From: a virus
Lineage: Duplodnaviria; Caudoviricetes
Virus record (IMG/VR): IMGVR_UViG_3300021399_000127
Coordinates: 33,691 to 97,690 of that record
Direction: 5' to 3' (one strand)
DNA length: 64,000 nt
In this document: positions 3,780 to 30,892 of the stretch, one piece after another
Layout of the letters: each line of letters begins with the position of its first letter
Numbering within the stretch: the first letter of the stretch is position 1
Program-made: the position numbers and the translations under genes
The notes under the pieces: model-generated
What the model was told of the DNA's origin: nothing
What the model saw: the letters and a program-made list of their open reading frames with translations, nothing else
Database searches by the model: none

Positions 3780-3780
3780 T

Positions 3781-5124: not shown

Positions 5125-5136
5125 TAAACACTGACC

Positions 5137-8100
5137 ATGGCAGGTAAAAATATACGTATACAAAAACCACAGGGATTTGAATAGGATGTGGTTAAACAGG
5201 ATGCGACCGCTGTGCGATTTACTCAAGCACAACGGATAAGAGAAAAACAAGCATCTGGAAATTTTAATCAAGCAGACGACGCAGTAGCTAAGAGTGAAGC
5301 GTAGTCTGCTAGATATTACAACGAAAGAGAAAGAAAACGTAGAGAGGCTGCAGAAAACGCTAGAAAGCAAAAACAAAGAGAGATAGAGTTATACGAAAAA
5401 GCAGCAAAACGAAGACGTGCAGCAGAAAAAAGATTCTGGGAAGACAATTCTGCCGAAGAGGAGCAGAAGCGTCGACAGAAAGAAATGGACGAAGTTTCTG
5501 ACTATCTTGACTGGCTTGAGGAGCCTGAGCGCGAAAAGAAAGAAAAGGAGATAGAAGTCGAAAAAGAAGCATAGTTCATAAAGTGGAAAAATGACACTTT
5601 TGGAAAAATAGGAAGTACTGTAATAGGAGCTACACCTCTTGGATATTACAATCTTCGATCCATGTATTGGCTTAAAAACATGTTTGGAAGTGCCACAAAA
5701 AGCGGAACGGACACTCATATGGCAGCATTGTCAGACGATTTGTCGGAATTAGAGCTGGACAAAGAAGCGTTAGCATCTCATAAAAGAAGGACAGAGCTCA
5801 TACAAACCAAGAATGATCTTTAGTCTCAGTATGATGATCTTCTTCGTACTGTAAACTATAAAAAGAATGCTGGTACTAGCGCATCTTAGCAGGAGATGTA
5901 GAATCTTGAGGATCTTGGATCGCAGATAAACAACCTGCAAGCGCAAATAGACGATGAATAGCTTACTTATTTTGACAACCGGTATAAATCGTCATTTGTA
6001 GATAGGGCTGAGAAAAGCAATGGATGGTGGAGTTGGACTAAAAAGACAGCTGAGAATATAAGAGACGCTATCTTCGATGCAGCAGCTTCTATCACAGTAC
6101 TCGGTGGAGATCAAGACAGAGAACAAGCAAAAAGGGTTTAGTAGCGTAGAGCAGCAAAAAATGCTGAAAAATACGATCAAAACAGAGATTAGTATTTGTA
6201 GTCTTTAGGATTGGATACACTAAGCCCGACGTTGCTGTACCCTGGAGTCGATGCTATGGATCACAACGAGAAATTAGCTGAAAAATGGTATAGTGATCAA
6301 ATCGACACAGAAAGTAAGAAGGTTAGAGAACAGAGAATCAACACCGCTAGTCTGCAGGAAGATTTTAACAAGTGGGCACACGTTGACGATTGGTATAAAA
6401 AAGGAGAAGAGCTACATCAGAATGACAAATTATGGAGTCCTGGTTATTGGCAGTACTGCATGGCTGGAATGATAGGATCGTCAAACAGCTCGCCGTCTCA
6501 GATGATAGGGAACGCTATACAAACCGTCGGCATGCTTACAGGCCCAGAAGGAATGCTGCTTGCTGGTGCAGTATCAACTCCGTTTGATATAGCGGGAGGA
6601 TTAGAAGAAAATAAAACAGAAGCGACTGAAAAGCGTACATAGAACTTTAAAGATTCTATGGAACAGTGGGATCCTGAATTTAGGCAAGCCGTGATTGACG
6701 ATATGAGAAATCAAGCGTCTAAGTATTGGAAAAGATAGGGCATGTCTGACAAATGGATAAAGGAAAGATACTAGAGCGACGATAACTTAATACAAGATGC
6801 GTTTTCTGGCGTAGCAGATGGTGCGTTGAATGCACCTCTTGTTCGTCAGGCGCTGCTAGATTCACAACGTGGTTTACAAGCGTTAAAAGACGCAGATAAC
6901 ATTAGAACGTTGTGGGAAACTGGTAGAGAGAAAGCACTCCAATATGCACCACTAGGGTGGATGATGAAGAAAGGTGCCCGTGTGCTCAAAAGAGTTGGAG
7001 GTAAAGCTGGATCTTCTTTTATAAACAACGAAGGCAGACTGACTGTTTCATTTTAGAACAGTGCTAGTGTCGCAGAACGTACTGGACAGAAATACTCAAA
7101 CGGACTAATGTCGTCTATGAAAAAAGGTTATTCTGTTGCCCACGAGGCTGCAGAAACTGCTGGATTAGGAGGTCCTGCTGCAATAGCGTCTGGAATTATT
7201 GGTGCATCTGCAAACGGTGCTAGAAAGCTTGTGACAAATATGTCTCCTAGATTGGCTGAATGGAGCGACGATGTTGCAAAGACCCTTTCGTTTAAGTACC
7301 AAAAGGTGATAGACGTCATGGAAAAGAGCGGGCCTACGAGATTCTTACGGAGGTATGGTTTACCATACATGAAGTATGATCTTGCGCAAAGGTTTGCAGA
7401 AATGGGAGAAGAAGAAGGTCAATATATAAATTCCACAAAAGACTTTTCTACAAAGTACGGATATGACGGAATGACTTTCTTTGAGGGTATTGCAAACGAT
7501 ATGGAAACAGGATCGAGAATAGCAGAAGCATATCTTGCATTATTAGGAATAGGTCACAGTGAATTGTTAAACGATGAGGAATATTGGAAAAATGCGCAAG
7601 GTGGATTTGCATTAGGTGCATCTAATCCTGGATTCTCGCAAATAGTTACAGGATACAATGCCGTAATGGGTGCGAAGAACACATGGTCAGCATATGATGC
7701 AATACAACAATATTCTGCTATAAATCGAGAGGGAGACAGACTTATTCGTAGGTCTAATGAGTAGCTGGCAAACATAATAGTTAATGGTGATCCGAGGTCT
7801 GTAGTGAATGCTTTAGAGAAACAAAAGACGGAGGATTCACGTAGAGAGAATTCTAATTATAGGCAAGAAGACTATGATTACACAATCGAGTCAGCATAGA
7901 CGATTGCAGCACTGCATAAAAATAAAAAAGTACGATCGAGATTAGAAAAGATCGGAATAAAACCTGGCACAAAAGAGTATAATGTAGCCATGGCGGATCT
8001 TGCAAACCTTAGTATGCAAGATCGAGAAAATGATGCCGAAAGACAAGAATTGAATGCGGCATTAGCAGAAGCATATTAGAACAAAGAGTTTATAGAGAAC

Positions 8101-11100
8101 GTTGACAAGCTGTTTAAAGAAGCTTAGGATGCTCCTGATAATGTTGCAGAAAGAGCTAGAGCAATTGCGCAGCTTAGAAAGAACATAGAAGAGAATGAGA
8201 CTAAGATTGCAAAAGAAAACGGTATAGATACGAATTCTAAAGAATTTAAAGACGCACTATAGGAAAAGCAAAAGGCAATTGAAGAAAAGTTTGTAGAACA
8301 GTCAAATGCTAATTCTCGTGAAAATATAATACAGACGATTAAAGCTGTTAGTACAGGAAAGGCTTTGCTTAGAGCAAAAGCTGAGCACAATACTGCAAAC
8401 GATCTATTTGATTTTATCAAAAATAAAACTGGTGTTCAAACAAAAAGGCCTGACGCAAAATACGTAATTGGCGTTATTGACACACAGTTAAAACAGTTAA
8501 AGCAGAATATAAAAACAATAGATCCTGAATTCGACACAAAGATGTCGGATAGCGATTTCTTACAATATCTCGAAAGCATTGATATTCCACAGCTGAACAC
8601 TGATGGATTAGCAGATTTGGAATTAGCTAACGTGATGTTAACTGCAGACAAAGCAATTACGTCTAATTATTTGCAACAGTTCTATGGTATACAAAACCCA
8701 TAGGTAGACGAAAAAACAGGAAAGATTAAAGAATCAGAAGTAGTAAATGATTCTAAATATTCTAGGCGAATAAAAGCCATAATGGAAGCTGACAACACGA
8801 ATGATAAGATAAACTGGCTTGTCGCAGACGTGTTAACGGGAGATGCTGTTACAAAACTTACAGACGAAATAAACAAAGAAGAACGTGAGTTGTTCAAGCA
8901 ATCTAAAATAAAACAGGAAGAGATTGCTAAACAAAAAAATTAGGATGTTAAAAGTGGTACTGCAGGAAAACCTGTACCAGAAGATACTCCTGATATAAAA
9001 ACAGCAGATATAGAGAGCAAACCCACTCTGAAGCAAAAGCTTGACAAAAACAAAGAAACGTATAGAAAGAGAAAAGAAAAGGCTAAGTAGCAATGGAGAA
9101 AACGTCGTAACTCAAGCAGGGGAAAAGTACGTGCTTCTTTACTCGGACCACTTTAGGTTATTGTAGATATAGCTACAGATATAAGTTATCTTGCTGCCGT
9201 TGGAGCGTATAAGTTCTCTCAATTTGTAGATGATGTTGTAGACATATACGGACAACCAATAACCAGCGAGGACATGGGTTATGCTAAACAATAGTACATG
9301 AAGGCGCTAATTGCTGCAAGATTAAAAAATCCAGAGATCCTCGACAACTTAAGTACACTCGATGAAATACGTGACTACGGAGTAGTTGATAAAACACCAT
9401 ACATTACTCCAGGCTTAATAAAACTGGATCAGGAAATCGTGTTGCGAATGCAATTGTCAAATATGATGCAAAACAAGGACACTAAGTTATCTACATATTA
9501 TGACACAATAGCAACCGTAGACGGGGTAACCAGAGTGTATACAAACGATGCCGAGTACCAACTACAAATAGACGAGAGTTACAAGAGAGAGGCGAAAGAT
9601 ATAGCTTGTGAGTTTAAGAATGCTACAAACAACGAATCTGCGTTTTTGACTGTTTTATCAAAATACAATCTTGACAAAAAGTATTTAAAGTACCGAACAG
9701 TCGATGGTATTTCTGAAATGTTGGGTAGAACAGTTGTCACAAAAGGAATAGAGTTGAATCCTGATATAATGTTTGCAAGTGATATTAGACAATTAGCTAT
9801 TGCTGTATTCACATAGGATTATGACACTATAGACAAACTTGTAGACGCATACAAACCATCTGGTAGAAATTTAACGCCTGCTGTTGACGAGCTTCAAAAA
9901 TTGTACGAAGCTATAAATGATGCTGGAATGAATCCAGTATGCACAAACAGCAACATATATGGTATAAATAAGGACGGAAAAGCCGTCTCTTCGCAGCTCG
10001 ATTTGATTATTGTAGATTCTGCAGGGTATCTACACGTTATAGATGTATTGCAATCGTACAGAGATGTACAACAGAGGTGGAATCAACCGCCTGGAATGCC
10101 AGCCAGATATACAATTAGTCAAAGAGAAAAAGCTATGATGACTCAATTGACTAGTATTCTTGAGACATTATAGTTTATAAATATAGCAGATGTCAGTTGC
10201 TTACCGATAGTAGGAAATGCTGAGCCACATGTAGAGAAACGTATTCCTGTATACGATTCTCCAGAAACAGAGGTTTCTCAAGATACAACAGATCTCGTAT
10301 CTAAGATAAACGACGCAATAGACGATTACAATCAGTTAAAAGACGTCTGTGCTATCTATGATATTAGTTTTGTACCAATGTAGCACATTGCTGCAACAAC
10401 ACACGATACAAAAGCCGAACAAGAATCTTATATCACCAGCCTTTAGAGAAAACTCGATGAGATAAATACAACAAAGTTGTACGTGTTGAAAAATATAGAC
10501 GACACTGCAGAATCATATAACAAGTATGTGGAGCAGGTTGTTAATGATGGTGGAATACTGTTACCACAAAATGTTGAAGATAAAGTCTCTGTTTTAATAG
10601 ACTGTTGTCGTGAACTAGATGCAAAAATGGATGAGGTAGCCAACCTTACTCCAGACGATCAAGTATCCAAAACTGTATACGACCAGTTCTTGGTATGCGT
10701 ATAGGAAGCACAATATGCGTTAAATGATGTATTGATGGATCCAGACGCAAATAAAGCGTCTATTAGATCTGAACAAGAACTTATAGCAGCAGCACTTGAA
10801 AAACTAGCTACAAATAAAGAATATTTCGGACCATCTGCTGTAAACATAATTAGATGGTGGCTACACAAGTTTGATCCAGTAACACAAAATAACACTGCGT
10901 ACAAGAGTAACAGTGCTGCAGCAGGAATTACTGTTCAACAATACATCGATGTTATACAATCATGGCTTGAGACGTTACGAACACACATAAGACAAGACCT
11001 AGATGGTGATGTAAAACTATAGCAATGGTATTCTACTCTCTTAAATAATCATTTCACAGAACTCATTTAGAATGCAGAAGCATTCTTGAATGATACAGAG

Positions 11101-14100
11101 ATGGTGCCAGTCGACTTTAAAAATGAACTACAAGACTTAATAGTTCGAGCAAAAGGCGCCATATATTACTTTAATGATAGATACAAGGTTTAGCAGAACA
11201 CTGAAGTTTTAGGTGAACCTTAGAGCGAAGATGATGCCATTAACAGAATGGCGATACAGTGGATAAGTAAGTACGGGCAATCTGTAGCTTATTCTCCAGC
11301 TTTTGATAAGATGGTTGGTGGAGCTCAAATGGAGTAGAAGTACAGAAACTGGGCTATGATTTATCAAGAGATATCATAGAAACCAGACTTCTTAGAAAAA
11401 GCTATATTTAGCTTCTCTATATCAAAAGATAGCGACGATATAAAATTGTTTATAAAATACAATGATAAGAGTTGTTATCTTCCGTTTATCACAGATATCT
11501 CATCATATCCTGCCGGATCACTGTCACAAGAAGACATACAGTTAATAGAAACATCCAACAAGGCGAAACGTGACTTCTTTATTCCTAAAATGAAGAAGAT
11601 GATTCAATATGTCCAATCTCATCGTGGATGGAGGATTGAGTTTGGAAAATCATTGAATAAAGGTGAGATAATCTACGATACGGATCCAAATGCTCCGTTA
11701 CACAATGTACAAGAGTTTTTGTTTACAGGTGCTAACAGTAAGGATTTGTATACGGTACGCATGTCTGCAGAGGATGAAATAGGAATCCTCATCAAGCGTA
11801 ACCCAGGACAAGCTAATGAGACAGAAAAAGTGTACTGTGGAAAACAGCTTAACACTCCCATTCAGTCTTTCGATATGGATAGCAGAAAAGCTAAGTTATA
11901 TAGGTTTCATGCCGGAGCTCTGTTGTTTAACTTTGATACAGGAAATGGTGATAAGATTCCTGTACTACTAGACAGGGCTACCATAGGAGACAACATGGCA
12001 GAAAAGCTAGTCGACCTTATTTATCAAAAAATGCAGGGCCAGACGTATGCTGACGGATATGGTATAGACGACCTGTTGTCTATGGTTTTATACTTAGATA
12101 ATCCAAACAAGCGTGCATCACAGTATTCAAATACTAAAAACAAAATACGAATCGATGTAGCTAGTAAGTCTGTTATAATAGGATCTGAAGCTGGAATTCC
12201 TATCACCGATAGACAAAAGCTTGCACAGAGACTTTCATCCATGCAAATTGTAGTAGATGCAGAAATGTTGAATGAGAACATGCAGTCTACTACACACAGT
12301 GTAATCTCTTCTGCGAAACAGTATCTGAGATTCTAGGATAAAGTTGAACTTCCGAATGGTATTGTTATAAACAAAGATGATATAATACATTAGAACAGTG
12401 ATGGTTCTTATGGGTCTACATGGTTCGGATTCCTATTACGAAACAACCTTATTGGAACTAATGCTAAAAAAACTGGAGGAAAACAACTTAATATAATAGA
12501 CCCAAAGCTGGTTAAGGAAGGTAAGAGTAAAGCAGAGTAGGATGTGGAAGATGCAGAACGACAGAAACAAGCGACTGGTCGACTACAGGCCAATGCTGCA
12601 GATTTCTGGCAAAAATTAAGTCGCGGACCATCATTGCATATGGATGTCACCGATTACGAATCGATTTCAAGAACAGATGCTGAGATTAGTTAGTTCAAAA
12701 CAGATGCTGAAAAATATTTCGATCTTGTATTTGGGTCACATGACGACTTGTAGATGGATGATAAAGTGTACCCAGGCCTTGTTCCAGGAACTGTGGCTAC
12801 GGCATACTGCACATCTCAGTATGTATATCTGGCAACGTGCGCTCCAGAATCTGCGAAGTTCCATGAGGCATTCCACAAACTAATGGAACTTGTTTTACCG
12901 AACAGTCAAAGAGAATACTTTTATAAGATATACCGAGAGAAGTACGGCAAGAAAGTAGATCTTAGTGATGACAGAGATGTAGCAGAAGGTCTTACTGAAA
13001 TGTTCGTAGATTATATTGAACATGATCTTAAAGTAAAGAGATCTAAAGGGTTTGGAAAATTATACGCATGGTTTAAAAACATGTGGTTTAATGCTGGATT
13101 AACTATGAAGCTTGGTAGGCGTAACGCGAACGCATTCTATAAACTGTATCAAGACATGAATGCCGGAAAGTACGCAAACAAGCAGGTTGCTAAAGAAAAC
13201 ATAGAACGTTTCGATAGTGTGTTTGGAACAGAAGAGGGCTCTAAGCTTTTCTATACCGTAGAAGATCCAAAATTAAAAGGTTCGTCTTAGGATTTCAGAG
13301 AATTGACCGGAAAAGCTGATCTGAATGATCTGGTAGAGGCTCTTGGCGTGATATATATAAACTCTGTTGGAATATCTACATCAAACATTTTATTTGCTTA
13401 GGAGGTTCTTGAAACAGCTAAAATAGACGATAGAACAGCTCAGCGAATGCTTGACTATCTAAACAATAAAGTTAAGTTAGACGGAAAGACACTTGAAGAG
13501 TTATATCCTAAGATAGCAGAAGTATTTGAGCCTGAGTATGTAGACACTGATGAAAAAGACAAGGACGGCAATCCTATAAAAAAGGCTACTTATCCTAAGT
13601 TTAGGGTGTTGCAGTCTAGATTGTCAGAATACATATCTGAAACTCTTGGAGCTGATTATCATGGAAAGTTTAAGAATGACGAAGACGACGAGGATGAAGC
13701 TGTGCAAAAACAAAATATCGATAAGTTTGACAGAGCCTCATACGAATTCAGTAAACTGGATAGTGCATCTCAACGTGTTAAGCTATTCCTGTCTACAATA
13801 ACAAGAAAACTACCAAACGGTTTATATGACCACTCTAAGAATAGAACAGGATATGAAACATTTATACCAGCTAATGAGGTGTTCTCGAGGCTTGTGCATG
13901 ATTTTGGTGAGGTTCGATCGTTAGACGAGCTACTTCGAATGATGGAGTAGGCTCAGAACAAGAGTCCTATGCATAAAGATGTCTATGAAAAGTTTAAAAA
14001 AGCAATAGAAGACATGTACACGTTTGATGACAATGATAAACTTGTTGTGGATTATGACAAAGAGCAATTCGCAATTCAGTTCTACACGTGTATAAAATCA

Positions 14101-17100
14101 CAGGATATGAACTTCGTGCTGGCTAGAACTAAAACTGACAACAACAGAAAACATACAAACATTATTAGCGCCGGATCAGAAAGAGATGCTATAGCATATC
14201 CTAAGATGTGGAATTCTCTACTTACATCTGGTTAGGTTTCTATATTTAGTAGTGTAAGAACTAAACAAGGAGACTTATAGATAGTTAAAGGACATGAAAA
14301 CGACTTAAGAGACGTTGCTGCATTCTTTAGATCTGCAGAAGCAGTTTCGGCCAAAGGTGGATAGATAGAGATTGATGGCAAAATGGTGGATGCGTCTACT
14401 CCAGAAGGATTTGAACAGTTTAAACAAGAGATTGTAAAACAATTACATCGAATCGGAATAACATTCCCTTATGATGCTCTTGTACACATGTTGGAAGAGC
14501 AATTTACAACACCTGAATATGGAGGAAACTCAACAGAAGGTTTGTACGCATGGTTGACCCAACGAAATACTGCGTCCATCACGCCGTTCTTACAAGTTCT
14601 TGAATCATGGGTAGACAAAAATGGAAATGTAAATTCTGAAGTATCAAAGAAAGGCTACACATAGACTGGTTTCGTAAAAGCGCTTGGAAATGCGTATAGC
14701 AGATATACAAAAAGTACAACTCAGAGTATGGTGCAGGCGTTAAATGGAAAATAGTTATATTCTGTGTCTCAGAACTCATCACTGTCACACATAATAAATG
14801 CATTAAATACGCACGACAAGAACAACTACATCATACAGACATTGAGTAGATTCTCATACAATCTTTTAGATGAAGGTGGGCTGTTCTCTGGATCTATGAT
14901 TCTTAAGGAACTGATTACTAACAACAACTCTACGATGCATTTAAGACTTGCAACACATATTGGTTCCAGAACAGACAATAGTGGCGATTATGGTACTGAA
15001 TATTCTGAGGCACCCGAAGTCGACGACTACATGGCAAAATTAGCCTTCCTTTAGAGTGGTTACATTGTACCTTGTACATTCGCAGATAAAGGAACATACC
15101 AGGTTATACAAGGTGTCACATTGCCTGGAATGCAGTTTACAGAGCATTAGGATTCAAACGGAAACACTGTTGTAGATATAGCAAATGTACCTACTATAAA
15201 GAAATACGACGGAGAGTTTGTAATCATACCGTCCAATGCTGTTCTTGACAGGATGTTGGAGTATGCAAGAACGGAATACAGTGCTATACAGCAATGTATG
15301 GTTGATTTAGGATACAAAGACATTCCCGGATATAATGGTGTAAAAAGAGATCCAATACCAGAGCGTGCAAAGATAAAGAATTACCATACTAATAATGGTG
15401 ATGTAGAACCAAATGGTACAAGATTCTTATCTCTAAAACAAATAGTAGTTCCAACCAAAGATGGGCTGAAGACGATAAACCTCAACGACCCGAATAAGTC
15501 TAGCGTTGAATTGCTTAAAAAAGCGTATGATGAGTTCTTCTCTAAAGGTCTCGATGAACAAAGAGAAATAATGGCATTAACTCTTCACGTACAAACGAAA
15601 GAGGCTGTAGATTTCGCATTGTCTCGTGGTATCGTGGAAAGCGATAACATTACCATGATACAGAACGGACAGACTGTTGTTGCAGTAGATTCTACAGATC
15701 CTTCGAAGAAGTTAGAGACACTTGTAACAAAACATCTGGACGAACTATAGATAGCTACGTTAACAGAGGCTATTGTTAATGCTAAAAAATGGGGAAATAA
15801 TATAGCTGACTCACAAAAAAGAGAAGCGTATAGAAATGTCGCCAAATCGTTAGCGATAGCAAGTATTCTTGAAGATGCTACTGTTAAGTAGATTATGTCT
15901 ATAGAGGAGTGTTAGAGATTGTTCATAGGACATCCTGGTATGTTCAAAGTGAGATACAACAAGAGTGAAAGTAGAATAGCTGATGATACGTTCGACATAC
16001 AGAAGCGTATCGGCGGTATTGTCTCTACTGGTGACGACAACTACCTAAACGACGCACGTGGATTAAGAAGTGAATATCGTTGTGCAGAATTCAAAGACCA
16101 CGAAATAGGACTCCATGCTGATGTAATATCTCAACTCGAAGATGCGTTCGAAGAGTCTGCTACAAAAGATTTGTTGGCTTAGATTCTTTCAGAGCAGAAT
16201 AAGGAAAATCATTATTACGACGAAGAAAGCCCTTATTATGTTTTTGGTCTTAAGAGGAAAGAACTACAAAAAATAATAGACGAATTACCTGAAAAAGATC
16301 AAAAACGCATCAAAAAGGCTTCTAAAAAAGCAAAAGAGTGGGCCTAGGCGTACTCTAAAAAAATAAACGTAGCTGATGGTGCAGCATACATAACAGACGA
16401 AATGTGTGAGCTTATGCTCAGAGAGCGAGGAGCAGACAATGAGAATGTTAAAAAAGCATTCGAGATACTAAGAAGTGAAGACTCTGAACACTCATGGACA
16501 GAAAAAGCTGAAGCATATGAACTGATATACGAGTAGGCTGCAATTGTTGCAACTAAATATACGGCATATGGTGTCAGACCACATACTGTATCAGACAAAG
16601 ACGGTAATATACAAAAAGTTTCAGATGTAGCTGTACCATATTACAATAAGTTTGCGTTGTTCCCAATCTTCCCTTGTCTTGCAACAGGGCCTATGAAATG
16701 GGTCTACGAGAAGATGAAGAACGAAAGAGTAGACATGTTGTTTATGGATTCTGCAGTTAAGGTTGGTTCAGAAGGAGCTATCGAGTACGATCCAAAGGCG
16801 TTAGATAAACCATTCAATGTGTATACGCAACATATGGGATTCCTACGTAGGCAGCTTAACACAGATCCTGAAGAAGGTAATCGTATTGCTATCGGAACGC
16901 AGATGGTAAAGATTGTATTATCTAACTTAAGGTTAGATAGACAATACGGAGACATTAATGGAATTGAGCTTCTCACCTATTTTATGGAAAACATAAAACT
17001 ATTATCTATGATTGGTGAAAACGAAGTTAATGAAATGTTCTTCACCGATGGAGAAATAGATAATAAGAAGCTTAGTGAGTTCTTGAAGAGAGAGCTTTCT

Positions 17101-20100
17101 AGTAGAGGAGCAAATAACGCTGTACTTTCTGCAACAGATGTTGTATACAATGAAGACACAGGTAAGTTTGAGTTTGTTATACCTATGGCTGCTACAGCTG
17201 ATGCTAGGTGGATGGAATCTATAATAAGGTCTACTGTTTGTAAACGTGTTGTAGACATCACAACACCAGGAGGAAGCTTTGTTCAGAGGTCTGTATTTGC
17301 GATAGAAGCTGAAGATGGAGAGTCTTAGATCTTAGGCGACGATAGTCCTTACTATCATGGTCAAGAGTTGAAGATGATAAACGAGCACGGTTCAATGGAT
17401 TCTGTAATAAGTATAGACTATTTCTAGGACATGATACCGCCTCATATAAAAGAATTTAAAGCTCGTAGACAGTGGCTTATCGACAACAGAATAATAGGAC
17501 CTGATGCTGAAACAGCTACTGTTGCTTACCGTATTCCTACTCAGGCACAATCTTCGATTCATGCACTACGATTCATAGATGTCTTACCTGCTACACAAGC
17601 AGCTATCGTTCTTCCTAAGGAGTTTACAAAAATAACAGGATCTGACTTCGATATCGACCACCTGTACCTTGCAACAATGAATTATAAAAAGGTAAAGGAG
17701 GATATAATAACCGGAGGAGACGAAAACATTACTGGTGAATGGTTATCTCGTGAACCTTATGATTTGACAGAGAAACAACAGTGCGAAAACAATATCTTAG
17801 GAGTTATGATAAAACTGTTATGCGATATAGGCAATTCTATGTCCTCGCTGTATAGATCAATTGATAACGATACAGAGTTACCAAAAAGCATAGCAGACTA
17901 GATAAAACCAAGAAAGGAAGATAATAAGAAGCACTTGCCGTATAATTTCGGAACTCTACACGAACAAGTTAGACGTAAGAGTGACTATATGACAGGTAAA
18001 ACTGGAATTGGACCGTTTGCATTGAATGTGACGTCACACGTTCTTACATATCTGTACGAGGTCGAGTTTAACAATTCTAAGTTTACAAAGAACACAGATA
18101 TTAAGAGTTTGCATCATTTGTTTGACCATGATGACAATTATGTATCATCGTGGATATCAGCGTTTATTAATGCACACGTAGATATAGTAAAAGACCCATG
18201 GATAAGTAAACTGAACGTAAATCCGTTTACATACAACCATCTTTCGTTACTAGTTCGTAGTGGCGTTGGAAATTAGGCTTGTTGGATGTGTGCACAACCG
18301 ATAATAAGAGATTTAGCTGCAGCACAACAACAAGCACAAAGTGAGATACTTTCAGATGGTGGAACGTCTAAAGCTAAGCGCAAACAAGAGTTGTTTGATG
18401 CCGTACTTAAGAAGTATGGAATAACAATGTCGTGGAAAGAGCTGCAGGCTTGGGGTAAAAACAGGAATAATGTTGATGCAAGAATCGCAGCTACAAATAG
18501 TGTTTTAAGATATCGTACAGATGAGCTTATCGACCAAGCAATTAACCCTGACAACATAAACTACTCTTTGCAGAACGATGTTGTAAAAGCATTCGTCGCA
18601 CTGGAGCCATATGCACAGGGTTTGAGCAATCTTCTACAGTATACGAAAGTAGATACTCGTAAGTATGGAAAGAACTTCATCCAGATGCGTTGCTATTATG
18701 AAAAGTACTTGAACGCTTTCTATGGTGATAACGATCATACAATCTACAATATCGACAGTGTTCATAGAATGCTAGAAGGTAGCTGGATAGACCAGAAAAC
18801 AAGATCTGCTATACAATTACCGTTATATATAATGAGTCAACAGACGTTTGACGCCAACAAATAGTTCTACAATACTATATATAAATTATGTTGGGCTATT
18901 ACTCAAGACAGATCGTTGTTTACCGAAGATCTAATGGAGGCTGTTTCGCAGCAATACAGAACAGCGATAAAACTCAAGTATATGCACGAATATGCAACGC
19001 AAGTTCTCGGAATGACTGATAAGGATATTCGAATGCTGTTCTTTGGAAAAGATCAAGACGGATCACGTTCTATGGCGTCTAGATTAAATGGATTAAAGGC
19101 AGCCGTTAAAACGTATCCTGAATACCAAAGACTTGCTAACAACTATCTTATAGAAAAGTTATTGCCAAAAACCAGAGAAGATGATACTATAACATCTGAA
19201 GGAAAGTTGGCAAAAAAACCTATGTTCATAACAATATCTCAAGATGTCAACAACGAAAGAATGAATGAGAACGCGTTCTCTGATGCATGGGTTGAGTTAC
19301 TTAATGACGAAGATCCTTATGTTAGAAAATTTGCAGAAGATCTTGTTGTTTATGCAATGTACACATCTGGAGAATATCAGGGATTTGATAAGATTGCAAA
19401 ACTTATTCCACCAGAATGGTTGCGTGGCGATACATAGAAGACACCTGTTATAATAGACGGAGTTGCTAACAACTCATTCTCTGATTTTATAAAGCATGCT
19501 CTTACGTCATCATATGCTCAGAGTTTAGCTAGCAATGATATGTAGAACTCTATAGTATCACACCTTCAAGACAAATTCTTTATCGTACAAACTATACCAC
19601 AGCAAACAGCAGATGGAAAATAGAACTTCTTGTCTGTAGATACTGACAGGTCTGTCTTAATAGGCTCATCTGAAGTGTTGGATGAAGATGGAAACGCTCC
19701 TACGTTTATAAAGGTTAAAAAGCGTTACGCTTCTAACAAGAGACAGTCTTCGTATAATTTGTACAGATATGTTGGTAGCAATAATGGTTTTCCAATATAT
19801 GTGTATTGTAAAAGTGTTGGATACAAGAACGGCACCGAGAATATATATGAGTACTGGTTCGATATGTAGTACGAGGAAAATGACAGTAAAATCTCTAAGA
19901 AGCAGAACAAGTTTGAGGATACACGACGTATAGTGCTTTAGGCGATTAACGATCTGTTTGATTATACATACAGCGGCAAGAAAGAATCGTTAGATTAGTT
20001 CTTTGAAAGAGCGTCGGTCTATGCTTCTCAGGTATATGATAAAATAGATCCTAACGGTGGTGTTCAAATGCCTAGTTTGGTTAGAAAGAAGAGCGTATGG

Positions 20101-22854
20101 GTTAAAGCTAGAAGTAAGTACTCAAGAGAGTCTGTTGAGAACGATCCTAAAACTCTATATATATTCACAGATAACACAGATAGAACATCTGGTGGTGTAC
20201 AATACGGAGACGGATGGTATAAACAGAAGTATGGTGCAGGAGGTTTCGGAAGTTATAGTAATCCGACTACAGCTCAAATTCGTGGACTCGATAATGCTGC
20301 TCCTATCAGTACTATGAGATATATGTATTCTAAACACGGGTTTACACATCCTGGAAAAGATCCTAATAGTTTGGCTAGGTGGCATGATTCAGACTTCGAA
20401 GAGTTTAAGAAAGTGTTTGACGACGAGATAGCTCAAATAAAAGCATTGTGGGACACTGGACGATTTGAAAAGATTGTATCTCCACAAGGTGATGGTTTCT
20501 TCGGAAGTAGACTTACTGATATAAGTAAGGCACGTACTCCTAAGATATACGAATATATGAATCAAGAGTTCGAGAAATTATATCAGTATGTAAATAGTGG
20601 TTCTAGTAGACAGACAGAAAGTGTAGACACAAACACTACATTCGAGTATGCTAGAACGGCTGATGGAAAACCTAACTATGAGGTTTCTTCAAGAGGAGAT
20701 GCTAGATTCTCTGCTATGAATGCTACATTTGCTCCTGGTACGACATTGTTTGGTCACGACGTTGGTGGTAGAACAATAGAATCTGTATATCAGCATGGTG
20801 TTAAACAAGGAGACTGGTCTACTGATAACAACAACAAGACTGGTGCTCCAAAAGACAAGACTATAATAACTGGAAATACAGAGGATGACAGCTATGTTCA
20901 AGGATATCTCCCATTGTGGGAAGAATGGGCTAAGCAAAATACACAGTTGATGTAGGAACTTAGACAAAACGCTAGTGGTAAGGTTCTCACTGATATGTTT
21001 GCATCAACAGCCGTATCACAAGCTAGAGCTTTGGCTGACATTTTAAATAACAATCAGTCTGCTACTTCATCTGCTACAAATACACTCCATGGAAGACAAG
21101 CTACTCATGAGGAAGAACTTGCTACGTTGAACAGTGGTAAGACAATATTGTCTAATGAGGAGCTTGCTGCTTGGAATAAGAATGGTGTTGGAAAGAATCC
21201 TAGAATTCTTGTGGCTACAGAGAGAACTGATCCTGCATTCCATTCAAAAGAGATAATAGACATCATAAACGGAGTAAAAGGTGTTACTAATAGAAAGTAT
21301 ACCCAAATAACCAAAGAAGAATATGATGCTCTGCCTAACGGTCAACGGTGGTACAAACAAGCTACAAAACAGTATTTTAGAGTCGATGTTACAAATCTAA
21401 GCAGCAGTGATTTTGCAGGATTGTACATCATAACAAAGCATGATGGTCTCCCTATGAGAGACATATTGGCTACGAAAATACCAAAGTTAATACATTTCAG
21501 TATTACTGGTCTCGGTGGTACTACGTATGAACCTGGTGTCATGAAACCGAATGACTTGTTGGATAGAATCGGTGACTATATAAAGCAAGGGTTAGATCCA
21601 GACATGATAACTGTACGAATAGATCCTATAGTACCTGGTGTAACAACTCCTTCTATGATAGAAAACATAGTCAAGAGGGCTTCTGAACTAGGAATAAAGA
21701 GAATACGATTCTCAATAATGGATGCTTACGGTAACACTGTTAGAAAGATGAACGCTCTAGGATATTCGTTTGACTAGAAGTATCATTGGGATATACAAGA
21801 CGGTGTCAATCGCATGGTTGTAAACGATGATGTCAAAGACTCTATTGTCAAGTTCATGTTGTCAATGAAAGACAAGTACGGTGTTACACTCGGAACTTGC
21901 GCAGAAAACATTCATGTTGATGGAATATCCAACGAAGGATGTTTATCTGTAGATGGTGTAAACAGAATGCTTGGATCGAACATAGAAGATCGTGGCACCG
22001 ATAACAATAATCAACGAGTAGACTGTTCTTGTTATGGTGGAAAAGTCGACGCTTTGGCGTATGATAAGTATTGTGGAAGTGCGTGTGCCTATTGTTATGG
22101 AAAGCACGAAAACGATGCTGTTCATCAATACTACAATTAGGACGGAACGCTTAAACAAGATAAATTTACAATATCTGGATATACTGACGAACAAACACTT
22201 CCACAACAGCCGCAGACTAATAAGTATGTCAATCATAGTGGTGGAGCTATTGGTTCTGATTACGAATGGGGACAGTAGGGCTAGAAGTACGGAGTAACCT
22301 CTAATCATTACTATCACGGAGCTAAGACGCCGCACGGAAATATTGAAATAACAGAATAGGAATTCGAAGAGGGGAAACAACATGTAATGATTGCCAACAG
22401 GACGTTGCACAGAAGACCTGAACGATATTTGAATTTGTTAGCTAGAAACTACATGCAAGTAAAAAATTCTGATGCTGTATTCGCAATAGGACATCTCGTA
22501 CGAGGAATAGTTGACGGAGGTACTGGTTGGGCTGTACAGATGGCAATAGATGATGGAAAACCTGTATATGTATACGATCAACAGAGATTGCAGTGGTATA
22601 AGAATATCAACGGTCAGTGGTCTGAATCAGAAACTCCAACATTGACTACAAATTTTGCAGGAATAGGAACTCGTCAGATAAACGAAGCTGGAAAGCAAGC
22701 AATAAAAGACGTGTACAGAAAAACGTTCGATGAACAAAATGGTGTCGGAAACAATAATATTTAGAAACCAAGTACCGGATATGCATCGTCTATATTCTCA
22801 GAAGAAGAAATGAGACTTGGAGAGCAGTATAAAAACATTTGTAAAAATTAGTAA
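5137..22854 (+). CDS. Giant virion RNA polymerase polyprotein (~5905 aa, TAG=Gln) with zincin domain and C-terminal accessory domains
   Basis: 26 track fragments from 6211 to 22764 share one frame and end in TAG; the gaps I translated contain no TAA/TGA; ends TAG-TAA at 22849-22854. Motifs YRIPTQ and GSDFDID (17644-17658, the crAss-like RNAP catalytic motif) and HEAFH (12862-12876). Confidence 0.88.
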
Positions 22855-22855
22855 T

Positions 22856-25800
22856 ATGAATATTTGTCCAAATTTACATAACAAAAAAGTTAAAGAATAG
22901 TTCGAAGAACTAGTCTCTGTGTTTGATGAAAATTAGGCGTATTATATTTGGGACAAAACAAACGGATATGGATTAGACTTGGCTCCAAACGGAGCTGAGT
23001 CTAAACTATTCGGTGATTTATTATAGTTTTGTAACGGTAATAGGGCAGATGCTCTTAAGATGAAGGCTACTACGCTATCCAGTAAGTTTCCTAAAGCTGA
23101 CTCGATCTAGAAACAAATTGTAGACCACTTAAAGAAGCTGAAGATAAAGGTGCACGGAATAGAAGATATGAAGAAGTATCTTTCTGCTCGTGGATTTAGT
23201 TCTTTACAGCAGTTTATAGGTAAGAAGGCTAGAGCTTAGTTTGAGCAGCAACTTAGAAAAGCACGTCCTGACATGTCTGATGCTGAGATTAAATCAACTC
23301 TTGACTTTCTTCATTCTTTGGAGGACAACAAGGAAAACAATGCTTACATAAAGACAGCAGTGAGGTGGGTGATGAATAGATCGCTCACATTGCCTGAGGA
23401 TAATACTAAAGCTCGTTAGGTTTTCGATGAAGCACGTAAAAGACACATAGATGTATAGAAGTATCCTACACTAAGTGCTCTTATTGCTTCTGATGAAATG
23501 AAGCCTAAAGAGAAAGAGAAGCCCAAATTCGATCCAGACAAGGCTAAGACATTCAGCAACAAACGCACAATTACGACAGAAGGTGGTAGAGTATTCACTG
23601 TATACGATGTAGAGAATACTGAAGAAGGACAACGAGAAGTTTGTCATGCTCTTGCTGCTCACTACAAAACATCTCCTTGGTGTTTATCTACATTTACTGC
23701 CACAGGAGAACCTACTGAATCTGCTAAGTATTACTGGGACCATTATAATACACTTCCAAGAAAGATTGCTTATGAAAATGGAAAGCCAGTAGCTTTTAAT
23801 AGCGATTATGGATCCCCTTATAATCTTTCGTTTAGAGGTATGGATGTGGTGTACTACCCGAATTCAGAACGTGGTAAGTATGGATTTAAACTTAACCCTT
23901 ATGAGCCACTGGTGCTACAATTGATCCAAGAAGGTATTGTGCGCAATATATTTGACGACCAAGATGATGTCACACCTGTATATCGATTTACAGGTAAAGG
24001 AGAACGTCTTATTGAGAAATCAGTAAGAGAAGCTTGGTGGGACATGGAAGATAGGTTTGCACAATTGAAGTTGTCAGACAATATTGTAGCCGACCCTTCT
24101 AATGGCGGAATTGCTCCTGATTTTGATCAAGATTAGGAGTTTGATGACGATCTTTTTCTTCCAGTGGATCCTGATTATGACCCTTATGAGGATTTATTTC
24201 AGTCAGAAACTGAATATGAACTAATCAATATACTGCAAGACATTGTACTACTAAATTTATATCGTGTAGAGAATTAGGATTATAACTTAGATCCAGTTTG
24301 GATTGTAAACGAGTATTCAAATATTTATTTCCAAGAATTAATAGCACAAATATCAGACTTTGACTGGGGAAACCATCGTAATCCTGTAGAAGCCGCTTAG
24401 AGTATCGTATAGAATAACAACGTAGAGTAGCATATACGTGAAACGATAAACGAATATTATACTAGACTACCTCAGCCAGCACCACCACTACAAAACGGAC
24501 TTACTGAGCCCATACCTGCTCCTGTAGCTCCTGTAGCACCAATCGACTTAGGTCCAGGTTTGCCTTTCTATCTCACATCTAGTGGTGAGATATACGGTTT
24601 TGTAACCCTTGAAGGCGATATCTATCTCGATGAAAATGTAATATCTCCAGAACATCCTATCCATGAGTATACTCACTTATGGGACAGAGCTGTAGCAAAA
24701 AAGAATCCAAAGCTTTGGAAAAAAGGTGTAGAGTTAATGAAGAAAACCGATCTGTGGGAAGAGATTCTTTTCGACAAAAACTATGGCAAAAAGTGGACGT
24801 CTAATCCAAATATAACACCTGAAGAATTAGAGTTTCTTGTTGCATCAGAAGTGCATGCTAGAATTGTTGGAGAGAAAGGTCAGTAGGTATTAGATAGAAT
24901 AGCTAAACAGAAAGGTGGAGATAGTATAGTATCAAAACTTAAGGAATGGGCATTCCAGTTCTGGAAAACTATAGCATAGACTTTTTCTCCATGGACACAA
25001 GAACAGATAGACAGATTATCTTATGGAGATTTTGTAAATATAGTACTCAGAGATTTTTCTCAAGATAAAAATGTTTTGGAGCTTGATGAAAACGGAGAAA
25101 TGTCTGCACGAAATGTAATTTGTGCCGATCCGTTCTATGGAAGATCTGTTACAAGCAGCCAACAAACAAGGTGTATAATCAGTAAGCTGTAGTAGCATTT
25201 TGGAGACCTTATATAGTATAATGACAAAACAAAGAGCTTTTATTTATACTATTAGAACCATCCTAGTTTTAGAAAACAAAACGCACTTACAGAAGTTCAG
25301 CTCATAGATCAGGTCATACAATATTGTAAGTATTTCTTTGACAAGATACCTATAATTCGACGTGTTGGTTCAGTGTTGAATCCTAATACTGGTAAGTTTG
25401 AACCGCATCAACAACCTGCAATTCTTGGATTTGCTCCTAATAAAAGCATATTCGACAACTGGATAGATAAAGAGATGACTCTTTATGACAACAAATGTCT
25501 TATAGAACAGTTCTTAGAGCAAAGATTCCCTGAAACACAGGTACGTTGGATTACACGAGAAGAACAGGCTAGTCACAATTCGAATGCGAACGCTTGGTAT
25601 GACATTGAAAATAATTGTGTGTGTCTTGTTATGGATGCTGTAAAGTCAGATAATATAATAGAAGAGTTCTTACATCCTATAACACTGATGATGTAGTGCT
25701 CCAGTCCGTCTGTATTTGATGACTTATACGATTAGGCTGTGGAGAAATATCCAGAAATCCGTAAGCAGGTGGATAAGTTATATGGAAACGAAGATGAATT

Positions 25801-28800
25801 TGTAAAACGTAACGAGGTTGTCACTAAAGCTCTTTCTAAAGTATTAGACAAGAAAGAGAAGAACAAAAATCGTATAAGCGTAACAGAATCCATATTTAAG
25901 GATATAATAGATCATATATCTCGTATATCGAATGGCAAGCATCAGATTGATGTAAATAAACTTCCCGATATGACATTGGATTAGTTCGTACAACTTATAT
26001 GTTGTGAAGATGTACAGTTTCTTACAAAAGATGCCGCACAGTATATAGACGAAGTAAAACAAAAACGATTGTATAATATAGCAAATACGCTTGACCCGAA
26101 TGAGATCCATGAACGACTTACTGATGCGATGGAGTCATTACATCGATAGTTGTCTAGTAAAAAAAGAACGTCTATTACTGATACTCGTAGGAAGCAGATT
26201 CATGAAACGCTGAATAAAATAAGAACTGCAGACACTATTGTACTAATGAATGACTTTTTAGGACAAGCTATTGAGAGTCTTGGTATTCCTAATGAGACTG
26301 ATAATACGATTCCTAAAGATTATACTCCAAATGATCTAGACTCACATCCGCAATCTGTGTGGGGAGCTTTACTAAAAGCTAAAGAAAACAATTACGCAAA
26401 TGTAGATCCTATGTTTTTAATGGATGAATTTAGATTTAGTATAGGTTTCTACGAATAGACGATGAAACTTCTCGAAAGTTTTATACATAATACTGGTATC
26501 TTAGAGCAGTATATGTCTGACCAACAAGCAGGAGAAATACGAGAACAAGCAGATAATCTAAATAAAATTCTTCGTACAGTAAAGTCCTTATGGAGAGACG
26601 CTGTGTTTACCGTTGGAGACCAAATTGTTGACAATTCTATCGATGAGTTTGTTACAGCAGAAAAACAAGATAAAGAATCTATGAAAATTGTATATAAAGA
26701 TTGGCTTCATAGGAATCTTTATTATGGCGATATTAATCTTGCACAGAAATTGGCAGCCAACTATGGTAGACATCAGAACGGTATTGTAAAAATGGCGTTT
26801 ACATTGATAGGAGAAGCTAATACCAAAACATAGTTACGTTCGTACAATGAAGCTGTAGAAATAGACAAAGCGTTCAGTAGATGCAACAATGCTATACGTA
26901 AATCTCTTCCGTTCTCATGGCAAGATATGTTTATGGAACGTGATAGAAAAGGCAGGTATACTGGAAAATTTGCAAGAAAACTCAACTTTGGATAGTATGA
27001 CCAAGATTTGGACTAGTTCGTTTCTGAGCTCAATAACAAATTTGATCAGGACTACGGATACCATTATGTATACAATGCGTCTGGAGATTTAGTGCGTTCA
27101 GATAATCAGCAACTAGCAGAAGATGAACCATGGGGCGACAGCATGACTAGTGATGATTGTCCTGTATGTATAAAGTATCTCAACGAGATTAATAAGTGGA
27201 AGGGCATTCATTGTCACAGAAGATATACTGCTAATTATTATGGAGAAATGTTATCTAGACCGATAACAGCTACTCATAAGCAAGCTGGGGAACCATATGT
27301 GGATCTTCCGCACGGTCTATCTCCAAAAACATACTTTAAGTATAACAGGTTACAAGAAGATATAAACTACATATTGAACGATTGCACGGATCAAGATACT
27401 GGTTTTGCTAGGCCTGAATCACTTGAACCAGAAGATAAACTTAGGCTAGATCGTCTTTAGAAAGAGCTAAGAGATCTAAGTAATCCATTTGAGGACGATG
27501 GTTCGTTAAAGGAAGACGAAAAATATCAGATAGCCATAGAATTATGCTCTTGGTAGACGTGGATAGGTAAAAAGTTGAACACTAAAGTTGACATATAGGC
27601 TTTTGAAGACGAATGTTCAAAACTTTCTGGTCAAGAGTTGGAAGATTTTGTAAAATACAATTCTTATTGGGGAGTACACCCGCAATACAGTGAGCAAATA
27701 CCATATGCAAATATTCCATAGGACATAAGGGTTCATGAGATGGATCTTAGAAAGTCTGCTTTGTTACGAATGCCTAGTACGACACGTGATTTGTTTAGAG
27801 AATTATATCAATATAGGTTTAGTGGTGAGTTTTGGAAAAATTGTAGGGACTGCGATCAATATATTGCAGATAACAAACTCAGACAAAATTTAACAACACA
27901 CGATAGATTTGCGGACCGGTTTTATAGAGAATTAGTTCCGTATATAGACGAATATGGTAACTACAGAACTGTTACTGGATAGGTAATGACGCCTCAACAG
28001 TATGGTGCGCTTGTAAAGTAGTATAGGGAACATCACGATGATTCGTCTAAACCACTTGTAGTATTGCCTGAATTGTACTCTTTTAAAGATTATATAACAG
28101 ATCTGTATGTACAAGAGGCGTTACAGAACGGAACTATACCTGGATTTAATGATAATGACAACGTACCTGTATCGTTCTCTGGTATGAGCGAAAATGATAT
28201 ACGTATGAGAGTAGAATAGTTATTCACGTACGTATATAATTATACTGATTATGATGGAACTCCTAGATCTGAAACCAGACCATTGAGTGTATTTGTTACT
28301 AATCAACCATCCCACAACGTATTTCTTTCAGCAGATAAGGATAATAACGTTAATGTAGACCATGTTGTTATAAATGTACCTATAGGAAGATTTAGCACAA
28401 AGGTAGATAACGGAAATAATCTCGTAGATGGCGAGTTTGATCCACAGCTTCGTGAGTCAGAACAACCTGTTCGTTTCGATGCAGATGGTAATCTGCTATA
28501 TGATAACTCTAAAGCATTTAGTAAGCTTGGTGAAATAGGAACTCCAGATAGGGATCTGTACGAACTTCTTGTCGACACGATGAGAAAGAAATACCTGCAG
28601 GCGCATCCTAATGCAACTAGGTATGATTATAGGCTACCGTAGATAAACGCATCTAATAGTTAGATATTATCTAGAGCGCTAAGGATAGGTATTAAGGATG
28701 CGTTCTCTAGTGTTATCGAATCAATATACGCAGTACAAGAAAACGATACCGATATGAGAACGGAAGAGTCTTATATTATAAACCCAGACGGTAGTAAGTC

Positions 28801-30892
28801 TTTAACTCTTCCGAGAAGATTTGATTCTTTACTTGAAGATCCGTAGCACATATCTAAAGATGTTGTAGCAGGAGTTAAAATGTATCTGTACATGTCTAAT
28901 AATTACAAAGACATGTAGGATATTGAGGCATAGCTAAACATGTTAGAGTATAACATGAGAGATGATATTAGGCAAACTCCTTTAAATCATAGCGAATATG
29001 GTTTTAAATCTGCAGAGAGATCTGATGAAGTAATGAAACGTATGATAAACACTCATGTATACGAGGATCAGTCAGCATGGGGCGCAGATACGCCAATGAA
29101 AGTTGCCATTAGCAAAATACACAAACAAGTGAGCAAATATCTCGTTTTGCAACTCTTGGCATTTAATGTAATGTCTGTAGCTACAGGTTTTGTTGATCAG
29201 ATGAGTAGGTTGTTAACAGTTGCTTTTTCCGGTAAACTATTTTCTCCTATAGATTTCATATATGGACTAGGATCAACTATATACCACACACCAGCTATGA
29301 TATGGAATATGGGCAAGTCATATAACAAATAGGGTGATAAATTGGTAGGAACAATGGCTGCACTTGGAATTGGGGCTGATTACAAAGAAATTGTTGAATA
29401 TACGTCGAAGAGTCAGCTTAGAAATGTTGTTGTAAACTCTGCTCTTGGTGCATATTCTATGATGGATTACTATGGTTCTTCTACGGCTCTTGTAGCAATG
29501 ATGAGACAAAGGAAGTTTTACGATGGAGGTGTTGTACCAGCTGGGTTTTACACATCATATGAACTTTAGAATAAGCTTAAAGATGCCGGAATGTCCCCAA
29601 TGGAAGCTAGAATACATGCCTATCGGTCCAGACTTATGTCACACACTACAATGTGGGGTGCTGTAAAGATAGAACCAGGAGGCAAATTTGTTGTAAAACC
29701 AAAATGGTAGCAATACATAAAGACAAAAGATATATCTCAGCTACGTAAATCTGCGTTACAACAAGGTGCGTTATTTGCTGGTACCAATCCTAAAAACGAT
29801 AAGCCGTTTATAAACATAAACGCACTAGGTATGGCTTTAACCGGCATGCGCGGATGGCTTCAACAGAGTTTATAGTGGCAAGGTCTTTTAGATGGTATAT
29901 AGGATGATACATCTGTACGGGAGTTTGAAGAAAAAGAAGAGGAAGTCATACGGCATGGTAAAACTACAAAGAAGGTTAAGCTTAAGCGTAAAGGTAGAAC
30001 GCCTGAATAGAAGTATAGAAGGTTCTCTTGGAACTTTGAAATGGGAATGCCAGACGACAACGTACTGACAAATGTTGTACGTAGTATTCCTAGAGTAATA
30101 CGTTCGTTTTGTGATCTTGTGACATTTAACCTTGGAAAAGCGTCAAAAAGGATATCTTATTCAGAGCGTAAGGCTTGGAGAGCTTTGATCATGTATGTAG
30201 CATCTATAGTATTGATAGGATAGACGATAAGTCCGTTAGTAGATTGGGCCAATACAGCACCGGCTCCACCTGCATATAGTACAGCCAAAAAGCTTAAATC
30301 ATACCAGACTCATGATGCAGAATACGCAAGAGAACAATCTGCTGCGTTTATGCCTTGGGAAGATGAATATTATGACTATCAAATTTATAAACTATAGGTT
30401 GCGACTATTGCAATGCGTACCTATCAAAACAAAATGGATGGTATATCACCAATAGCAGCAATGGATGTTATCAAATAGGCTGCAGTGACATATTCTGGAT
30501 ATGATAGAGCGCAAACAGCTGCTACAGAATGGTTGTTGTGGAAAACAGGCATTTTACCAGACGAAGAAGGAGAAATAATAAAACAGGGTTCGTATAAAAA
30601 CTTCTCAAAAGGAGAACGTGATATACAAATGTTAGTCCCAGGTCTTAGAAACATACACACTTCATTTAGTCATTATGGTGTGCAAAATAACCTTAGGTGG
30701 TATCTATAGACGTTTGGTAATCCTGAGTTTAAAGATGTCAAAATCAACGATAATAGACCTGTTGAAAAGAAGGCAAAGAATAAGAAGAAAAAGACAAGTA
30801 AAGAAATGAATTTCGACAACGATATGAATTTTGATAACAACATGAACTTTAATAACGATATGAATTTTGATAATGATATGTCATTTGACTAA
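22856..30892 (+). CDS. Large virion protein of the RNAP/cargo block (~2678 aa, TAG=Gln) with zincin-like domains
   Basis: ATG 1 nt after the previous TAA; track ORFs 23498 to 30485 share this frame; ends TAA 30890-30892. N-terminal CPNL...LAPNGAESKLF motif typical of crAss-like giant proteins; HEYTH at 24662-24676. Confidence 0.8.
30806..30889 (+). repeat. 18-nt coding tandem repeat, about 5 copies (MNFDND)
   Basis: Encodes MNFDND MNFDNN MNFNND MNFDND MSFD directly before the stop codon. Confidence 0.9.

Follow-up and report, generated by a model that had tools for sequence, protein, structure and literature searches.

What does a domain resembling NADAR, a superfamily with members that remove adenosine diphosphate ribose (ADP-ribose) from guanine, do in the tail of a phage RNA polymerase (RNAP)? 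The question is raised by a stretch of 64,000 nucleotides, hereafter the window, of the virus record IMGVR_UViG_3300021399_000127 (Duplodnaviria; Caudoviricetes), in which an earlier note made from the letters and their translations had placed such a domain at 20641-21050 and proposed that it counters the toxin DarT1. Here we report that the domain is genuine and strongly conserved, comprises about 125 residues and belongs to a widespread phage family, and that a predicted model supports a trimmed NADAR/YbiA fold for it. We refer to it as mini-NADAR. Anti-DarT1 activity is unproven and is one possibility among several. Coordinates are positions in the window unless stated otherwise, and all features of the window described here lie on the + strand.

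A conserved phage domain in an amber-recoded reading frame

Translation of 20641-21050 in frame 1 gives ...YEVSSRGDARFSAMNA...TIESVYQHGVK...LWEEWA...LTDMFASTAVSQARALADILN and so reproduces the peptide quoted in the earlier note. The motif singled out there is present, but its true form is ESVYQHGVK, that is, E-x3-Q-x3-K and not ESxYQxxK. The positions given for the domain proved to be its conserved core, running from F4 to N139 of the segment that we modelled and to which we assign the domain by profile match and predicted fold (20632-21072). This segment corresponds to residues ~5166-5312 of an open reading frame (ORF) of 5905 amino acids (5137-22854), in which TAG is read as glutamine and which contains 76 TAG but no TAA or TGA codons. 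By its homology to crAss-like RNAP, the ORF encodes a polyvalent protein that contains a virion RNA polymerase (vRNAP). The placement of the domain in an RNAP tail also held, as residues 3788-4788 of the same ORF match crAss-like RNAP genes.

Read with the standard code, the window's first 31 kb are, on the + strand, a mosaic of short ORFs. With TAG as a sense codon these merge into a few very long ORFs, the largest of which is 5137-22854. One TAG (20953-20955) lies within the family profile match, and it is read through as a sense codon because the conserved C-terminal motif of the domain (LTDMFAS..SQARALADILN) resumes in the same frame after it. A separate gene extending from the ATG at 20068 to the TAG ending at 20955 was considered and rejected, since the conserved C-terminal third of the domain is located downstream of this TAG and in frame. 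The source genome is a complete virus record of 97.7 kb with terminal repeats. It encodes a tRNA with the anticodon CTA at genome positions 1945-2019, outside the window (labelled 'tRNA-Pyl' by ARAGORN), which is likely the amber suppressor behind the TAG recoding of late genes.

With E 1.9e-28 over profile positions 7-123 of 124, well beyond what chance would give, the domain belongs at full length to phrog_9995, a family listed in PHROGs v4 with function unknown. Scans of the domain against Pfam (E<=10), NCBIfam and PADLOC matched no family model, and phmmer and profile searches against PDB sequences gave no match. A family profile built from 22 homologues retrieved 969 representative clusters at E<=0.001, 381 of them at E<=1e-30. 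Members stand alone (~125 amino acids) or sit inside giant polyvalent phage proteins: 59 of the 150 best family representatives are longer than 1000 amino acids (1000-6146), and in 53 of 80 IMG/VR loci the domain occupies an N-terminal, internal or C-terminal position within a frame of at least 1400 amino acids, the remaining loci having ORFs of ~130-950 amino acids. The N4-like Delftia phage RG-2014 has a homologue within its early gene block, and phiKZ-like phages also carry standalone or early-gene copies. By comparison of 32 diverse members, which are mostly less than 50% identical, 15 residues are invariant (S19, G22, D23, R25, S27, R47, E50, K58, Y92, D121, F123, Q130, A131, A133 and L134), and all 15 are kept in the copy of this phage.

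Predicted fold and candidate active site

An AlphaFold2 model based on the 22-sequence family alignment (predicted local distance difference test, pLDDT, 89.8; predicted template modelling score, pTM, 0.86) consists of a short N-terminal hairpin, a helix at residues 49-58, two helices at 84-102 and 104-114, a strand at 118-120 and a helix at 130-146. In a search of this model against 48,161 PDB chains, one representative per sequence cluster, the top three matches were three NADAR-superfamily structures, which scored far above all others. These were the DarT1-associated NADAR of G. lovleyi (8BAT; score 9.2, 129 of 147 residues aligned, deviation 3.5), E. coli YbiA (2B3W; 7.7, 125 residues, 3.6) and a NADAR of P. 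nicotianae (8BAU; 7.5, 123 residues, 3.4). The alignment with 8BAT begins at its residue 12. On the strength of these three matches, the NADAR-like fold proposed in the earlier note agrees with the model.

To remove ADP-ribose from guanine, NADAR proteins need three residues (PMC11543638): Glu and Lys in the first core helix, E88 and K95 in E. coli C7 or E43 and K50 in P. nicotianae, and an acidic residue (Asp or Glu) that ends a later strand, D171 or E125, respectively. Three invariant residues of mini-NADAR are candidates for the corresponding positions. Glu50 (20779-20781), at the start of the first core helix (49-58), is the candidate equivalent of E88/E43 by helix position and conservation; Lys58 (20803-20805), at the end of the same helix, that of K95/K50; and Asp121 (20992-20994), which directly follows strand 118-120 in the model, that of D171/E125. 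E50, K58 and D121 match E43, K50 and E125 of P. nicotianae in order and in secondary-structure element, the equivalence being drawn from element order only. The D..WG motif of NADAR proteins (E..D..WG) is replaced by LTDMFAS..SQAR. Phosphate binding could have passed to the invariant R25 and R47.

For the statement that the pattern of residues is that of DarT1-associated NADAR antitoxins we found no support. PF08719 did not match the domain even at E<=10, and the profile comparison that had been suggested, which we ran with hhalign, remained at noise level. Against a YbiA-type profile the family reached a probability of 0.1%, staying at noise level with relaxed settings, and against a broader NADAR profile 0.4% with a score of 15.3, no better than the unrelated control of DUF7831 against NADAR (14.3); the E-values of the family against the NADAR profiles were 0.16-0.55. 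The broader profile was assembled from ten phage NADAR proteins and YbiA relatives; searches for YbiA homologues had given just close relatives of YbiA, which kept the sampled NADAR diversity narrow. As a test this comparison is weak, for 8BAT, a bona fide NADAR, likewise goes undetected by the YbiA profile. The sole local alignment pairs RFSA..DGRT-IE..YQ with FSNF..DGK..SEHYFQ, which is the motif of the earlier note, and puts E50 on YbiA E48; it is statistically noise and we do not count it as support. A Foldseek search of BFVD returned significant E-values for family members only, followed by two annotated NADAR proteins (E 0.4-2) and many DUF4326 proteins (E 0.4-3).

Weighing a proposed function in ADP-ribose-directed counter-defence

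We consider it probable that mini-NADAR is a ribosyl N-glycosidase whose substrates are adducts or derivatives of ADP-ribose and which enters the cell with the polymerase, as one element of a counter-defence tail of shuffled modules. Glu50 and Lys58 of the first core helix, together with Asp121 after the next strand, would act on an ADP-ribose-type N-glycosidic linkage, and the domain would in this way neutralize a host defence based on nicotinamide adenine dinucleotide (NAD+) or ADP-ribose at the very start of infection. Catalysis, substrate and delivery into the cell are what we infer here. The N-glycosidase reading is favoured by the 15 invariant residues, among them the charged or polar E50, K58, D121, D23, R25 and R47, by the fusions of family members to DUF4326, SLOG, AlkB-like and DUF7831 domains, by the PolyVal and helicase domains of giant ORFs that hold the domain, by the early-block position of the homologue in RG-2014, by the vRNAP core in the same ORF and by the presence of DarT in Bacteroidales. 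According to PMC9503650, fusions of DUF4326, SLOG, Macro and NADAR domains form an ADP-ribose-processing network of DNA viruses, for which virion packaging was proposed. As to the substrate, the enzyme would quite possibly remove ADP-ribose from nucleic-acid bases of the incoming genome or its transcripts, an outcome to which we give somewhat less than even weight and in which the DarT1-type guanine adduct specifically has an unlikely share.

DarT was surveyed in 401 sampled genomes from the order of a Prevotella metagenome-assembled genome (Bacteroidales), the host being assumed from Crassvirales biology. DarT-family genes were found in 37 of the 401, and DNA ADP-ribosylation is therefore a plausible threat for such phages.

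Several observations weigh against the N-glycosidase reading. The fold is predicted from an alignment of 22 sequences, and neither PF08719 nor hhalign yielded a significant link to NADAR by sequence or profile. With a family homologue as the query, the nearest neighbours by ESM features were DUF488 and DUF4326 (0.83, sub-threshold) and not NADAR. Within the candidate active site, Lys58 is at E+8, not E+7, so that the Glu-Lys spacing is 8 as opposed to 7 in NADAR. The segment K75-R93 of P. nicotianae NADAR (8BAU), which binds adenine and pyrophosphate through K75, R79, Y84, D86, W89 and R93 (PMC11543638), is replaced by a shorter, variable loop (residues 59-86, pLDDT ~70). Most members of the family have the motif W.GKGK in this loop; it is not kept in the present copy, which reads ...NNKTGAPKDK.... 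Finally, at the five best DarT loci examined, DarT is followed by a Macro-domain protein of ~345 amino acids (DarTG2 type) and is not paired with NADAR.

Some of these observations would also be expected if the structural match were convergent or a modelling artefact and the family unrelated to NADAR, being kin, for example, to the rhodanese- and phosphatase-like DUF4326 and DUF488. The noise-level profile comparisons, the ESM-feature neighbours and the DUF4326 proteins found with Foldseek in BFVD point in this direction. Set beside the three NADAR-superfamily structures at the head of the PDB search, they leave this explanation, in our estimate, very improbable. Somewhat less improbable, and still a poor candidate, is a domain that has kept a NADAR-like fold but lost catalysis, serving as a binder of nucleotides or nucleic acids, as a structural module or as an inhibitor of a host enzyme. 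The missing ADP-binding segment and the altered E-K spacing are consistent with this, and a phage NADAR protein without need for enzymatic activity is mentioned in PMC11825919. However, invariance of 15 residues that include E50, K58, D121, D23, R25 and R47 is a pattern typical of an active site.

The results on DarT loci bear most directly on the possibility that mini-NADAR is an orphan DarG1-like antitoxin, which would remove ADP-ribose from DarT1-modified guanine in DNA as AdfN of phage T4 does. The five examined DarT loci pair the toxin with a Macro-type DarG, and the five genomes gave no match to PF08719; a sixth locus encodes a fusion of DarT with an HD domain (469 amino acids). A search that detected the window's own copy as a positive control found no member of the mini-NADAR family in the 401 sampled Bacteroidales genomes, beside a toxin or elsewhere. 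In the window, too, the domain is not adjacent to a DarT1 toxin and is instead a module of a phage virion protein. In this small sample, a guanine-specific DarT1/NADAR pairing is thus not what the presumed hosts carry. The lack of NADAR profile similarity and the replaced ADP-binding segment speak against a DarG1-like role as well, and the commonest fusion partners, DUF4326 and SLOG, suggest small-molecule processing equally (PMC9503650). We therefore regard a DarG1-like antitoxin as unlikely.

Compared with DarG1 itself (8BAT of G. lovleyi; the NADAR of E. coli C7), mini-NADAR is smaller (~125 versus ~200 residues), has no detectable similarity at the level of sequence profiles, has its ADP-binding segment replaced and a Glu-Lys spacing of 8 rather than 7, and sits as one module in a giant virion protein, without a DarT partner. 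It is more reminiscent of the orphan NADAR proteins of phages (AdfN of T4, Bas32 and Bas60; PMC11825919), which are likewise phage-encoded and recognized by AlphaFold and structure search, and for which the proposed role is also an enzymatic counter-defence early in infection. Yet AdfN proteins were identified as NADAR by PSI/DELTA-BLAST (PMC11825919), whereas the mini-NADAR family is not; AdfN is a free early protein, whereas the present domain is fused to a virion RNAP; and AdfN of the T4 type has a His at the position of the acidic residue, which is an Asp in the mini-NADAR family. E. coli YbiA (PF08719, 2B3W), a housekeeping N-glycosidase of riboflavin intermediates, has an extra helical segment and the motif D..WG..G, neither of which occurs in mini-NADAR. 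A YbiA-like housekeeping role in riboflavin metabolism was rejected on context.

Fusion partners were tallied among 54 mid-size members of the family. DUF4326 is present in 14 (26%) and a SLOG-type domain (cpYpsA, YAcAr or DprA) in eight (15%); rarer partners are an AlkB-like oxygenase (two members), DUF488 (two), DUF7831 (one) and guanylate kinase (one). Giant ORFs with the domain also hold Kinase-PolyVal, ART-PolyVal and superfamily 1 (SF1) helicase domains. The frequency of DUF4326 and SLOG, the latter of which is also encoded downstream of mini-NADAR in the present ORF, is in line with an enzyme that hydrolyses soluble ADP-ribose-derived immune signals or toxins, for instance those generated by TIR or ART proteins, working alongside a DUF4326-type phosphatase and SLOG. 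Loss of the canonical ADP-binding segment would also suit such an enzyme, because it suggests an altered ligand. On the other hand, we know of no NADAR that has been shown to act on signals of this kind, the tether to an RNA polymerase and the AlkB-like, helicase and DprA-like partners point to nucleic acids, and the few copies present in a virion fit poorly with a signal that is diffusible and amplified. Hydrolysis of soluble ADP-ribose-derived signals or toxins, which would be a variant of the N-glycosidase reading, is thus a doubtful but serious possibility.

If mini-NADAR is an active NADAR-type hydrolase, phrog_9995, with its 969 clusters and with members in phiKZ-like, N4-like and crAss-like phages, gains a testable function, and a trimmed clade missed by sequence methods is added to the NADAR superfamily. 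A virion RNA polymerase would then bring its own counter-defence enzymes, offering protection before the first phage transcript is made, and from the variable tails of sister phages one could read which defences each lineage meets. Among phages of the human gut Crassvirales are the most abundant, and to our knowledge hardly anything is known of the ways in which they escape the defences of Bacteroidales.

The polymerase carrier, its modular tail and other copies of the domain

The closest relatives of residues 3788-4788 of the giant ORF are giant genes of the Suoliviridae/Oafivirinae genomes cr130_1 (48%), cr131_1 and cr272_1, and the same residues also match 'putative RNA polymerase' genes of cultured crAss-like phages of Bacteroides. 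The vRNAP core (17044-18720) matches g066 of Cellulophaga phage phi14:2, annotated as 'catalytic RNA polymerase subunit' (tblastn E 1e-20, residues 183-741 of the query translated from 16498-19500). It contains DFDID (DxDxD; 17644-17658, ORF residue 4170) within GSDFDIDH, a candidate metal-binding loop of the RNAP. A search of the RNAP-region sequence against PDB gave no direct sequence match.

Four domains follow the polymerase region in the order DUF7831, mini-NADAR, DUF1848 and SLOG. DUF7831 (PF25176; 20110-20566, E 3e-8) is weakly Macro-like by predicted fold. DUF1848 (PF08902; 21205-22098, E 3.7e-18) also matches the PADLOC model RTasDUF1848 (E 1.5e-22) and is therefore a defence-type module in a phage virion protein; RTasDUF1848 is a partner of defence-associated reverse transcriptases. 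The C-terminal SLOG/DprA-like domain (22219-22617) matches phrog_768 (E 2.3e-12) and, weakly, cpYpsA, Nuc_deoxyrib_tr and DprA. Tail modules vary among the sister Oafivirinae: cr130_1 has SLOG and then DUF7831, cr131_1 has DUF7831 only, and cr272_1 has DUF7831, DUF1848 and SLOG with ~62 residues at the position of mini-NADAR. No mini-NADAR domain was found at E<=1e-5 in the crAss-like records of the phage collection.

Mass spectrometry of crAss001 virions detected RNAP-associated proteins, which are modelled as cargo that is ejected (PMC10172136). Because these counterparts are virion cargo, it is a reasonable inference by homology that the giant RNAP protein is packaged and ejected into the cell ahead of or together with the DNA. 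It is conceivable, though we think it improbable, that the virion RNA polymerase carries in its four-domain tail a tethered kit for cleaning the template. The injected polymerase would meet the incoming genome ahead of all phage gene expression; DUF7831, which is Macro-like, and mini-NADAR might strip thymine-type and guanine- or cytosine-type ADP-ribose adducts set by DarT-like enzymes of the host, and DUF1848 and the DprA-like SLOG might handle other lesions or hold single-stranded DNA. If so, it would be the first known case in which the reversal of lesions is physically linked to the transcription machine of a phage, and it would introduce a new minimal NADAR clade of about a thousand sequence clusters.

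Phage NADAR proteins, virion-packaged domains for ADP-ribose processing and polyvalent proteins are already established. The present protein resembles the polyvalent proteins described by Iyer et al. in 2017 (PMC5512222) and 2022 (PMC9503650), as presented in the main texts, in its giant size and shuffled modules, in the co-occurrence of Macro, NADAR, SLOG and DUF4326 domains and in the delivery at injection that was proposed for them; it differs in that the carrier is a crAss-like virion RNA polymerase. The main texts of both papers name neither the mini-NADAR family nor Crassvirales, and we found no paper that links NADAR to Crassvirales. PHROGs gives neither a function nor a fold for phrog_9995, to which the NADAR-fold assignment is added here. 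By comparison with these main texts, what is new is a trimmed NADAR variant in a new carrier.

Further observations concern the surroundings of the RNAP gene and other copies of the domain. A second giant TAG-recoded ORF follows the RNAP gene (22817-30892; 2691 amino acids, 48 TAG); it had no PHROG match at E<=0.001. In cr131_1 a small gene is inserted into the giant gene and splits it; its annotation likens it to gene 17 of Salmonella phage PVPSE1. In many IMG/VR contigs of ~95-100 kb, mini-NADAR is at the N terminus of a giant ORF rather than in an RNAP tail. A copy that is 86% identical to the one in the window is present in IMGVR_UViG_3300021255_001841 (locus L088, 4001-4405), in a giant ORF of standard code and different architecture. 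There it is preceded by a Kinase-PolyVal domain and a PIF1/RecD-like SF1 helicase, and the other tail domains of the window are not nearby, which points to recent exchange of modules between giant phage proteins.

Phage phiKZ has an intact copy of 123 codons directly after gp82 (NC_004629.1, ~79850-80245; locus L083, 2950-3345), of which the annotation covers just a piece of 39 amino acids (PHIKZ082.1). Near the start of this copy there is neither ATG nor GTG nor TTG, and an ATA is present where gp084 of PhiPA3 (locus L188, 340-742) has an ATG. In both phiKZ and PhiPA3, a CCCAAAG heptamer (C_CCA_AAG in the frame of gp82) is located one codon before the gp82 stop. Translation of the phiKZ copy either initiates at ATA or reaches the domain through a -1 frameshift that joins it to gp82.

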